Sequence record: AJ512676.1
From: Enterobacteria phage P2-EC30
Direction: 5' to 3' (one strand)
DNA: 2,187 nucleotides
Shown here: positions 1 to 2,187 of the stretch, piece after piece
Position numbering within the stretch: position 1 is the first letter of the stretch
Layout of the letters: the number at the start of each line of letters is the position of its first letter
Notes under the pieces: generated by a model
The model's database searches: none
What the model was told of the DNA's origin: nothing
The model's input: the letters and a program-made list of their open reading frames with translations, nothing else
Translations under genes and position numbers: made by a program

Positions 1-30
1 AATCCTGAATGGCCGGAAATGCCGCAATAA
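1..30 (+). CDS. 3' end (partial) of a tail fibre assembly protein gene, P2 gpG-like; start lies upstream of the window
   Basis: Frame 1 reads aat cct gaa tgg ccg gaa atg ccg caa TAA, giving N-P-E-W-P-E-M-P-Q-stop. Tail fibre assembly proteins of lambdoid and P2-like phages end with a similar EWPxxP motif (recalled from memory, not searched). GC-normal codons (ccg, gaa) contrast with the AT-rich cargo downstream. Position immediately upstream of a tail sheath gene fits P2 synteny (H-G-[variable]-FI). Confidence 0.5.
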   Translation, partial: NPEWPEMPQ

Positions 31-92
31 GTTGTATGAGCTCTGGTGGGAGCTTACATATCTATGGCACAGAGTAAAGCCTAATTTGACAG

Positions 93-120
93 TCCGCTCT
101 GTGCCAGAGGCGGACGTTTT
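93..120 (+). terminator. Candidate weak rho-independent terminator or hairpin downstream of the tail fibre assembly gene
   Basis: TCCGCTCTG (93-101) can pair with CAGAGGCGGA (105-114) with one bulge and a 3-nt loop, followed by ACGTTTT (114-120). An alternative 9-bp stem GGCACAGAG (66-74) / CTCTGTGCC (97-105) with a 22-nt loop overlaps it. The T-tract is short, so this is weak. Confidence 0.3.
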
Positions 121-171
121 GGGTATATTAACCTTACACTTCATGGATACTATTCAACATCTCTTTTAAAT

Positions 172-226
172 TATTGTAAAATCCGACGCATTCATTGATT
201 TACGGAAACTTGGCGTATTGTAAAAT
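172..226. repeat. Two exact copies of the 11-mer TATTGTAAAAT (172-182 and 216-226), 44 bp apart start to start, in the AT-rich region upstream of the cargo gene
   Basis: Direct reading of the sequence; both copies are identical on the + strand. Each contains a -10-like TAAAAT hexamer. Function unknown: could be tandem promoter elements or regulator-binding sites. Confidence 0.6.
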
Positions 227-312
227 TGAACATCAAGATTTACACTATGAAGGTTAGGATAGTTTGTTAAAAGCATAATGCATGAGGCCTGAATCAGTTT
301 ATTAAAGAAGTT

Positions 313-343
313 TTGTATGAATTAAGTGGGCTAAAAATATAAT
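313..343 (+). promoter_or_regulatory. Candidate sigma70-type promoter for the cargo gene: -35 TTGTAT (313-318), -10 TATAAT (338-343)
   Basis: Perfect consensus -10 hexamer TATAAT at 338-343. The -35-like TTGTAT at 313-318 has a 19-bp spacer, longer than optimal. It lies about 70 bp upstream of the preferred start codon at 412. Sequence-only prediction in AT-rich DNA, where such matches arise easily. Confidence 0.35.
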
Positions 344-411
344 TTTGAAGTATTTATGACTACATGATTCATATTCAATTATTTGAGTTAAATATTTTTC
401 ATGGAGAAATT

Positions 412-1779
412 ATGGACGTTAGAATATTCTCATTAGAATCTCAGAAGAGTAAAATTTATGATAGAAGAACTAGAAAATATTTTGAAGAGGTTTATAAGAG
501 CTATGCTAATGGTTGTTACCGTTCTGCTACCGTGATGCTATGGTCAGTAGTTGTATGTGATATTATTTTTAAGCTCCAAGAACTGCGAGATGTTCATAAC
601 GATGCTGTTGCGGAAAAGATATTATTAGAAATTGAAGCACTACAAAACGATGATCCTTACTCTCCTAAATGGGAAAAAGAGCTTATTAAAAGAGTTTTTG
701 AAAGAACTCAATTATTAGACACTGCTTCAAACCATAAAGTTTTACTTATTCAAAAACACAGGCATTTATCTGCCCATCCAGTAATAAGTGACGAAGATAC
801 GTTATTCGAGCCAACACAGGAAATGATTAGAAGTGACATTAGGAATAGTATAGAAGTAATATTAAGCAAGCCGCCATTTATGTCTCAAAAAATACTTTCC
901 ACATTTGTTGCAGATCTAGAAAAGGTAAAGGACCTATTCCCTTCCGATAACGCGCTAAAAAAATACTTAGATGTTAAATATTTCAAATCTTTAAACAAGG
1001 AAGTATTAGTTAAGATATTCAAGGGGTTGTGGAAGTTTTCGTTTAGATCTGAAGAAGCTAAGCCATTAGAAAATAGAGAGATAAATATCAGAGCTATGAA
1101 ACTGATATTTGAAAAAGACAGGCAAGCCATGGTGGACTCGGTTAAAGCAGAAACTGCTTATTACTCCAATATTTCCAATAACCATGATGCAATTAAGGCA
1201 CTAATTGAGTTCATTTCCATGGAGAAAGAAATATATAACGCCTTGGATGATTCAGTAAAAGAACTCATAAAGCCTATTATAAAAGATAACATATCTTATT
1301 TTGGAATAGCCTTTTTTATATCTGAATCGCCGGAGGAACACATTAATCGCGTAACAAAAAGAATATCTGAAAAATATTACAAAAAATACGGGGATAATGG
1401 GAATTTTCTCAACCAGCAACATTTGGCAATTTTTAAAAATGTTTGCAGCGAATTAGGTTTGGAATCAGAGTATCGCGATTTTGGAATTGCTTGTTTTATA
1501 AACAGCGCTGATTTCGAACGAGCCGATATATATTTTGATAGATTTATTGACAAAGACTTGGCTAATTACTCAAGCGAGCAAATGTTAACCCTGCTTGAAG
1601 GAGCAAACAAAAACAATCAATGTTATTGGCGAAATCGCTCTAGAAACGGTAACGATTCAATAAGAATATTAAAAGCAGCAAAAAATAAACTTCCCGATGG
1701 TTTTGATTTTTCTAAGTATGATAATCTTCCTGTAGATAAGATAGATCATGTTTTAGAAGAGGATGTTGGAGAAAGATAA
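412..1779 (+). CDS. Hypothetical protein, about 455 aa; possible HEPN-family (R-x4-H) RNase-like N-terminal domain with a large uncharacterised C-terminal region; candidate phage-borne defence or abortive-infection cargo gene
   Basis: Uninterrupted ORF in the supplied track (364-1779). I prefer the in-frame ATG at 412 because GGAG at 403-406 sits 5 nt upstream, whereas the ATG at 364 has no Shine-Dalgarno at a usable distance. Tandem stops TAA TAG at 1777-1782. AT-rich codon usage throughout, unlike the flanking genes. RHLSAH (nt 760-777) fits the HEPN R-x4-6-H motif and sits about 120 residues from the N-terminus, where HEPN domains usually place it. No Walker A, no obvious transmembrane segment and no signal peptide seen. 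The domain assignment rests on motif and position only, with no profile search. Confidence 0.85.
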
Positions 1780-1815: not shown

Positions 1816-1847
1816 AATCTAGGTATCATTAGCCAGATACCTAGATT
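1816..1847 (+). terminator. Perfect 12-bp inverted repeat AATCTAGGTATC-N8-GATACCTAGATT; candidate terminator for the cargo gene or a protein-binding palindrome
   Basis: Arms at 1816-1827 and 1836-1847 are exact reverse complements, with an 8-nt loop ATTAGCCA. Begins 37 nt after the cargo stop codon. Followed by the T-rich but interrupted stretch TAAACTTTAAATTTCTGTTTCTATT, so terminator function is plausible but not classic. Confidence 0.4.
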
Positions 1848-2033: not shown

Positions 2034-2061
2034 AGGCGGGCAGATTGCCCGCCTTTTCTTT
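2034..2061 (+). terminator. Rho-independent terminator (GC-rich stem-loop plus T-tract)
   Basis: GGCGGGC (2035-2041) pairs perfectly with GCCCGCC (2047-2053) around the 5-nt loop AGATT, followed directly by TTTTCTTT (2054-2061). Oriented for + strand transcription; on the - strand the stem is followed by TGTCC, not a U-tract. Confidence 0.7.
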
Positions 2062-2157: not shown

Positions 2158-2187
2158 ATGAGCGACTATCATCACGGCGTGCAGGTG
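2158..2187 (+). CDS. FI: 5' end (partial) of the phage tail sheath protein gene, P2 FI-like; continues beyond the window
   Basis: ATG at 2158 preceded by GGAG (2146-2149) at 8-nt spacing. Encoded N-terminus MSDYHHGVQV matches my recollection of the P2 gpFI tail sheath N-terminus (not verified by search). GC-normal codon usage. Only 10 codons are visible. Confidence 0.6.
   Translation, partial: MSDYHHGVQV

Follow-up and report, generated by a model that had tools for sequence, protein, structure and literature searches.

The RHLSAH motif encoded by a cargo gene of a P2-like Escherichia coli prophage is almost certainly the catalytic HEPN site of the known defence protein PD-T7-3/DARNA

Organization of the locus

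The 2,187-nt stretch of DNA analysed in this work (sequence record AJ512676.1, Enterobacteria phage P2-EC30; hereafter the window) carries on its plus strand a single long open reading frame (ORF), which spans positions 364 to 1779 in a program-made ORF list, and it ends on both sides in genes of a P2-like phage. The left end (1–30, plus strand) encodes the last residues, NPEWPEMPQ followed by the stop codon, of the P2-type tail fibre assembly gene, recognized from its translation and from the annotation of NZ_CP132979.1, and known as G in phage Wphi. The right end (2158–2187, plus strand) encodes the first residues, MSDYHHGVQV, of the P2-type tail sheath gene FI, whose product is annotated as phage tail sheath protein or gpFI. 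The long gene sits between G and FI of a P2-like prophage, and the RefSeq annotation of NZ_CP132979.1 agrees with this placement. Phages P2, Wphi, HQ103 and other Peduoviruses match the flanks only, approximately 16% of the query, and the cargo has a GC content of 0.33, lower than the 0.44 and 0.47 of the two flanks. The AT-rich gene is cargo of the Z/fun (G-FI) hotspot in a P2-like E. coli prophage; Z/fun has been described as a second P2 defence hotspot, with three of the systems recovered in the screen of Vassallo et al. (2022).

The coding sequence extends from 412 to 1779 (plus strand, stop codon included) and encodes a 455-residue protein that PADLOC, PDB and RefSeq matches identify as the single-gene defence protein PD-T7-3, also named DARNA and ‘Dandelion’. 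The ATG at 412 is preceded by a Shine-Dalgarno sequence, GGAG, at 403–406; it is the start of the RefSeq protein WP_001703208.1 (455 aa), which is identical in sequence to the window protein, and of the PDB ‘Dandelion’ construct, which begins with MDVRIF. The initial annotation had used a 471-residue reading from the in-frame ATG at 364; the positions that it gave for the motif were right, but the true start is the methionine at 412. The longer reading was rejected given that ATG 412 has the Shine-Dalgarno sequence and is used by the main RefSeq record, by the PDB construct and by the DARNA numbering. Since the start is ATG 412, as in WP_001703208.1, PDB 9wxf and the DARNA numbering, R117 and H122 is the correct numbering of the motif residues discussed below. 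The 471-residue start has been adopted in some RefSeq records (WP_257713991.1 and WP_240743735.1), while most use ATG 412.

An AT-rich upstream region (92–411, plus strand) is carried along with the gene, and in it a GC-rich terminator-like hairpin (approximately 93–115) is followed by GTTTT and then by the presumed native promoter. From approximately position 92 on, this region is common to the other genomic contexts of the gene, with 99.7% identity. The hairpin, located at 93–123 of the window and also at 6001–6030 of locus L002 and 5003–5032 of locus L003, reads GTC(C/T)GCT(C/T)TGTGCCAGAGGCGGAC, followed by GTTTTGGG, and its predicted fold has a free energy of −21.4 kcal/mol with a z score of only −1.75. 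Such a terminator-like hairpin would shield the cargo from transcription that continues past the upstream gene. An additional arm further upstream, GGCACAGRG, is present in the P2 and Rac contexts, where it permits an alternative hairpin (62–74/97–109). We infer that the upstream region functions as the native promoter because Vassallo et al. (2022) cloned the gene with its native upstream region. Sigma-70-like sites number 13 in the window, compared with 9.0 ± 3.2 in shuffled sequences, and the weak ones in the upstream region are not above the shuffles; given that such sites are not commoner than in the shuffles, no promoter was assigned.

Downstream of the gene, 37 nt past the stop codon and still inside the cassette, an inverted repeat can fold into a 12-bp AT-rich hairpin (1816–1847, plus strand; −16.3 kcal/mol, z = −4.8), which was as stable in none of 200 shuffles and which is without an adjacent T-run; it may mark the point where the cargo transcript ends, or it may be a protein-binding site. 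An intrinsic terminator with a 9-bp stem that includes seven GC pairs, followed by a T-run, lies at 2034–2054 (plus strand; −20.5 kcal/mol, z = −4.6) in the P2 backbone, with the FI start codon following approximately 100 nt downstream. The site of the P2 late-promoter activator is the dyad TGT-N12-ACA; this dyad has no match in the window, including the region upstream of FI. No RNA family was matched in the window by Rfam at E ≤ 1.

The whole window was present in only 2 of 5,426 complete E. coli genomes, and the cargo (approximately 92–1966 of the window) was found elsewhere in 11 more of them, with 98.5–99.7% identity. These other sites are mostly in a Rac-like lambdoid prophage, after ydaV/DUF1627/DUF977, and in one case in an island that bears IS2 and genes of the YfjJ type. 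No second gene was found beside the cargo gene, which is consistent with a single-gene system. The cassette has a fixed extent of approximately 1.9 kb and is 98.5–99.7% identical among 92–1966 of the window, 6001–7876 of L002, 5001–6868 of L003 and 5001–8212 of L004; it occurs in at least three unrelated contexts, i.e. the P2 G/FI hotspot, the Rac-like prophage after the DUF977 gene, and the IS2/YfjJ-type island. In all three contexts the cassette starts with the same GC-rich hairpin. In three of the listed genomes the matched region carries an annotated IS3-family element, which in locus L004 is situated immediately upstream of the gene. The ends of the cassette might be a specific recombination signal that moves defence cassettes between prophage hotspots, although we consider this improbable as opposed to ordinary homologous or illegitimate exchange.

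Identity of the cargo protein

The PADLOC model of PD-T7-3 (PDLC04108) matches the window protein with E = 3e-168 and 558 bits in hmmscan, and the match covers residues 5–440 of the protein and 3–429 of the 432 positions of the model. A PDB sequence search returned entry 9wxf (‘Dandelion’, 12 chains) with 100% identity over 455 residues; entries 9wx2 (‘Dandelion-hepn’, 2 chains, residues 1–158) and 9wwz (residues 156–455) are also 100% identical to the window protein. PD-T7-3 was recovered from E. coli ECOR30 in a functional screen, and the table of that screen gives ‘HEPN’ as its predicted domain (Vassallo et al. 2022). It was renamed DARNA in a bioRxiv preprint of February 2026 (Puteikiene et al., 10.64898/2026.02.22.705581; hereafter the preprint). 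The window ORF from 412 has 1368 nt, the same span as the PD-T7-3 ORF in ECOR30 (Vassallo et al. 2022, Table S2), and the ten residues that are numbered in the preprint (F6, N33, R98, R117, H122, K201, K204, E347, F368 and W406) are all at the same positions in the window protein; the match to the ECOR30 clone (RCP48690.1) was judged only by this ORF length and these ten residues. PD-T7-3 (Vassallo et al. 2022), DARNA (Puteikiene et al. 2026) and the PDB ‘Dandelion’ (9wxf, 9wx2 and 9wwz) are the same protein as that of the window, and no difference was detected.

An hmmscan of the window protein against Pfam, NCBIfam and PHROGs gave no significant match, the best one in Pfam being DUF6559 (E = 0.023, in the C-terminal part). 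A literature search on ‘Dandelion’ together with HEPN and phage retrieved no relevant paper. The exact protein is encoded on 339 contigs, and its cluster at 90% identity has 421 members. All the public records examined label it ‘hypothetical protein’, despite the solved structures and the name of the defence system.

The RHLSAH motif and the HEPN domain

The codons AGG CAT TTA TCT GCC CAT at 760–777 (plus strand; AGGCATTTATCTGCCCAT) translate to RHLSAH in the frame of ORF 364–1779. Translation confirmed that the motif occupies residues 133–138 of the 471-residue reading and residues 117–122 from ATG 412, as the initial annotation had stated. RHLSAH is the sole R-x4-6-H in the protein. Its occurrence as such carries no statistical weight, because among 20,000 shuffles of the protein (25 R, 9 H) R-x4-H appeared in 40%, and R-x4-6-H in 79%.

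A search of 5.8 billion proteins found 314 relatives, whose sources are Enterobacteriaceae, Aeromonas, Shewanella, Vibrio, Pseudomonas, Myxococcus, Paenibacillus, Bacteroidia and one Patescibacteria MAG. Conservation was evaluated in an alignment of 38 full-length homologues with identities down to 33%. R117, H122 and P123 are invariant in the 38 sequences; the residues between R117 and H122 are kept in 36 (H118), 36 (L119), 35 (S120) and 37 (A121) of them, H118 being the polar residue that follows the arginine of the motif.

The AlphaFold2 model obtained with the alignment of homologues is all-helical and confident along the full length (pLDDT 87.6), and a model of residues 1–160 reached a pLDDT of 88.9 and a pTM of 0.85. 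In these models the N-terminal domain (residues 1–159; 412–888, plus strand) is an all-alpha up-down bundle with the HEPN topology. The initial annotation had placed the motif at the start of the last core helix; in the model, R117 is instead in the last turn of helix 104–121 and H122 opens the loop 122–135, which precedes the final helix (136–151). The motif is considered real because R117, H122 and P123 are invariant in the homologues and the domain has the HEPN fold.

The lists of fold matches of the N-terminal domain include, in lower positions, the HepT toxins 7ae2 and 8xdj, AbiA (8oz7), AbiV, LsoA, Las1 and HepS. A Foldseek search of the full-length model against the PDB returned nothing at E ≤ 0.001, only generic alpha-solenoids; 9wxf was not returned and is probably absent from the coordinates searched. 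When the 38-sequence alignment was used as a profile against PDB sequences, the three ‘Dandelion’ entries were the only relatives obtained; IFIT2 (E = 0.038) was rejected as noise from helical repeats. When 29 homologous N-terminal domains were scanned against Pfam, only sub-threshold matches were obtained, with HepT-like_2 in three domains (best E = 0.022), and HEPN_Cthe2314 and DUF4145 in one each.

In the published HHpred analysis of PD-T7-3 (Vassallo et al. 2022, Table S3), residues 25–144 matched DUF4145, of the HEPN clan, with 95.5% probability and E = 2.7e-4, and of the other nine rows eight are of the MtlR/HEPN type (MtlR, PF05168 HEPN, HEPN_MAE_28990, NTase_sub_bind, Abi_2, HEPN_Swt1, DUF86 and RiboL-PSP). 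The profile searches that had been suggested as a check thus supported a HEPN assignment through the published DUF4145 hit, whereas plain hmmscan against Pfam gave nothing significant. Given that Pfam hmmscan was sub-threshold and full-length Foldseek had no significant match, this branch, which carries the fold and the motif of HEPN, is not covered by any current Pfam family; the window protein is a member of the HEPN fold that lies outside every existing Pfam family at the gathering threshold. The proposed N-terminal HEPN domain was borne out by the conserved R-x4-H, by the fold of the model, by the published HHpred analysis and by entry 9wx2, which was solved under the name ‘Dandelion-hepn’. 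Alanine substitution of the motif residues had also been suggested, and H122A is reported to be catalytically dead in vitro; the preprint (10.64898/2026.02.22.705581) names R117-x4-H122 as the HEPN site, and its assays of tRNA cleavage include H122A as the inactive control. We conclude that RHLSAH (760–777) is almost certainly the catalytic HEPN site, R117-x4-H122, of the known defence protein PD-T7-3/DARNA.

The C-terminal domain

Residues 160–455 (889–1776, plus strand) form an all-helical, alpha-solenoid-like domain that is reported to act as ssDNA sensor and in oligomerization; in the AlphaFold2 model its pLDDT is above 90 over most of its length, and entry 9wwz covers residues 156–455. 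The preprint describes a Pds5-like fold that binds ssDNA (10.64898/2026.02.22.705581), and with this binding of the activator the suggestion that the C-terminal part could be a sensor domain found support. The segment 368–408 (1513–1635, plus strand) includes the reported contacts with ‘CT’ ssDNA, F368, D372, N402, Q403, Y405, W406 and N408, all of which are present in the window protein; the bases of ‘CT’ are contacted by F368, D372, Q403, W406 and N408, and the substitutions F368A and W406A abolish defence (10.64898/2026.02.22.705581). Among the 38 homologues Q403 is invariant, D372 is kept in 36 and position 368 is F or Y in all, whereas W406 is kept in only 21.

A 23-nt direct repeat (1298–1320 and 1478–1500, 87% identity, 180 nt apart) was observed within the region that codes for this domain. 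Both copies encode (Y/D)FGIA(F/C)FI, and because they encode the same motif the repeat hints at an internal duplication of the helical repeats of the sensor domain.

Proposed mechanism and alternative explanations

The present analysis provides the identity of the protein, the HEPN fold, the finding that R117 and H122 are invariant, and the location of the gene as prophage cargo; the RNase activity, the tRNA targets, the activation by ssDNA and SSB, and the oligomeric state are all taken from the literature on the identical protein, and the source for the mechanism is one non-peer-reviewed preprint. It has been reported that the protein protects against T7, T3, T5 and T-even phages by abortive infection (Vassallo et al. 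2022; 10.64898/2026.02.22.705581), the preprint naming T3, T5, T7 and T4 for DARNA. According to the preprint (10.64898/2026.02.22.705581), phage escape mutants fall in SSB genes, and a phage SSB alone suffices for toxicity in vivo, yet without binding to DARNA; in vitro, the direct activator is ssDNA with several ‘CT’ dinucleotides, an effect that phage SSB enhances and E. coli SSB blocks. Activated DARNA cuts the anticodon loop of most tRNAs. The protein is a dodecamer with six HEPN active sites across dimers, in which the two H122 residues are approximately 8 Å apart, and R98, K201 and K204 bind RNA (10.64898/2026.02.22.705581). In our alignment position 204 is always K or R and R98 is R or K in 37 of 38 sequences, while K201 is found in only 16. 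The loop formed by residues 81–85 (DPYSP; 652–666, plus strand) is reported to occlude the active site at rest, and it is conserved in the homologues (P82 in 36, S84 in 34 and P85 in 32 of 38). All the cryo-EM structures of the preprint represent the occluded, inactive state (10.64898/2026.02.22.705581), and therefore the activation step remains a proposal.

From these data the following course of events can be proposed. The motif would be the active site of the N-terminal HEPN RNase in PD-T7-3, a single-gene abortive-infection protein carried as cargo by a P2-like prophage. In the dodecamer the HEPN domains would pair to give six composite active sites, which the loop 81–85 would block in the resting state. 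The C-terminal helical domains would bind ssDNA by means of base-specific contacts to ‘CT’ dinucleotides; host SSB would hide this ‘CT’ ssDNA and the phage SSBs (T7 gp2.5, T4 gp32 and that of T5) would leave ssDNA accessible, for which reason infection would switch the enzyme on. The active enzyme would then cut most host tRNAs in the anticodon loop, so that translation would stop and the infection would be aborted. The idea of an RNase effector that aborts infection, put forward in the initial annotation, agrees with the tRNA cleavage and the abortive infection reported for the identical protein (10.64898/2026.02.22.705581).

An alternative that deserves some consideration is that the protein does act as a HEPN RNase, with a trigger or target that has been described only in part, so that, for instance, a phage replication intermediate or SSB itself, and not ‘CT’ ssDNA, would be the activator, or lethal targets other than tRNA would exist. 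The mechanism comes from a single preprint, its structures are all occluded, its authors call the role of the ‘CT’ specificity unclear and could not model the density of the bound RNA (10.64898/2026.02.22.705581), and W406, which stacks on ssDNA, is conserved in just over half of the homologues (21/38). Nonetheless, ssDNA by itself activates the enzyme in vitro, mass photometry detected no DARNA-SSB complex, F368A and W406A abolish defence, and the ends of RNA-seq reads gather in anticodon loops (10.64898/2026.02.22.705581). The invariance of Q403 and the near invariance of D372 in the alignment point in the same direction, and we regard an incomplete trigger or target as rather unlikely.

It could also be argued that a domain of HEPN fold serves here for binding and not for catalysis, as it does in sacsin or MtlR, and that the toxicity resides in the C-terminal domain. 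Non-catalytic HEPN domains, reportedly surveyed by Anantharaman et al. in 2013, are said typically to be without the conserved R and H, and both residues are strictly conserved here. Proven RNases (the HepT toxins, Csm6, LsoA, AbiV and Las1) appear in the same lists of fold matches, and the tRNA cleavage observed in vitro is abolished by H122A (10.64898/2026.02.22.705581); a binding module is accordingly a very improbable reading. That RHLSAH fits R-x4-H by accident, in a helical protein outside the HEPN nucleases, is a reading for which the frequency of the motif in the shuffles and the lack of a significant Pfam HEPN match by hmmscan could be adduced; it is refuted by the conservation, the fold and the published mutant, and is hardly credible.

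Related systems

A catalytic HEPN site in PD-T7-3/DARNA invites comparison with several known systems. Csm6/Csx1, of the type III CRISPR-Cas systems, resemble DARNA in that a sensor domain allosterically activates a dimeric HEPN site; in contrast, Csm6 senses cyclic oligoadenylate by its CARF domain and degrades RNA broadly, whereas DARNA, a dodecamer, senses ssDNA by a helical-repeat domain and cleaves tRNAs in their anticodon loops. Csm6 and the window protein share 5–7% sequence identity, belong to different families and have only the fold in common. In the HepT/MNT system, HepT is restrained through AMPylation by its cognate antitoxin MNT; the window carries no second gene, and control would be exerted by the occluding loop and the sensing of ssDNA. 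As defence anticodon nucleases, PrrC/RloC, ApeA and HepS are similar to DARNA in mechanism, but only the fold is common, the accessory domains differ and sequence similarity is not detectable. The triggers differ as well: PrrC responds when the phage peptide Stp acts on EcoprrI, and in structure 9oik HepS is bound to the tail tip protein J of lambda. The identical PD-T7-3 protein is also found in Rac-like prophages and in another island, while the copy in the window occupies the P2-like G/FI hotspot.

The system is already known: HEPN was predicted in 2022, structures have been deposited in the PDB, and the 2026 preprint describes the mechanism. DARNA is a good example of the indirect sensing of infection, in which ssDNA exposed by a phage SSB is detected, and since this indirect sensing has already been published the window adds no new biology. 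The value of the present analysis is mainly one of validation: the motif and the logic of the domains, with an N-terminal HEPN effector and a C-terminal sensor, had been picked out from the sequence alone. For annotation, Pfam is without a family for this branch of HEPN, and WP_001703208.1 together with the 421-member cluster could be renamed.
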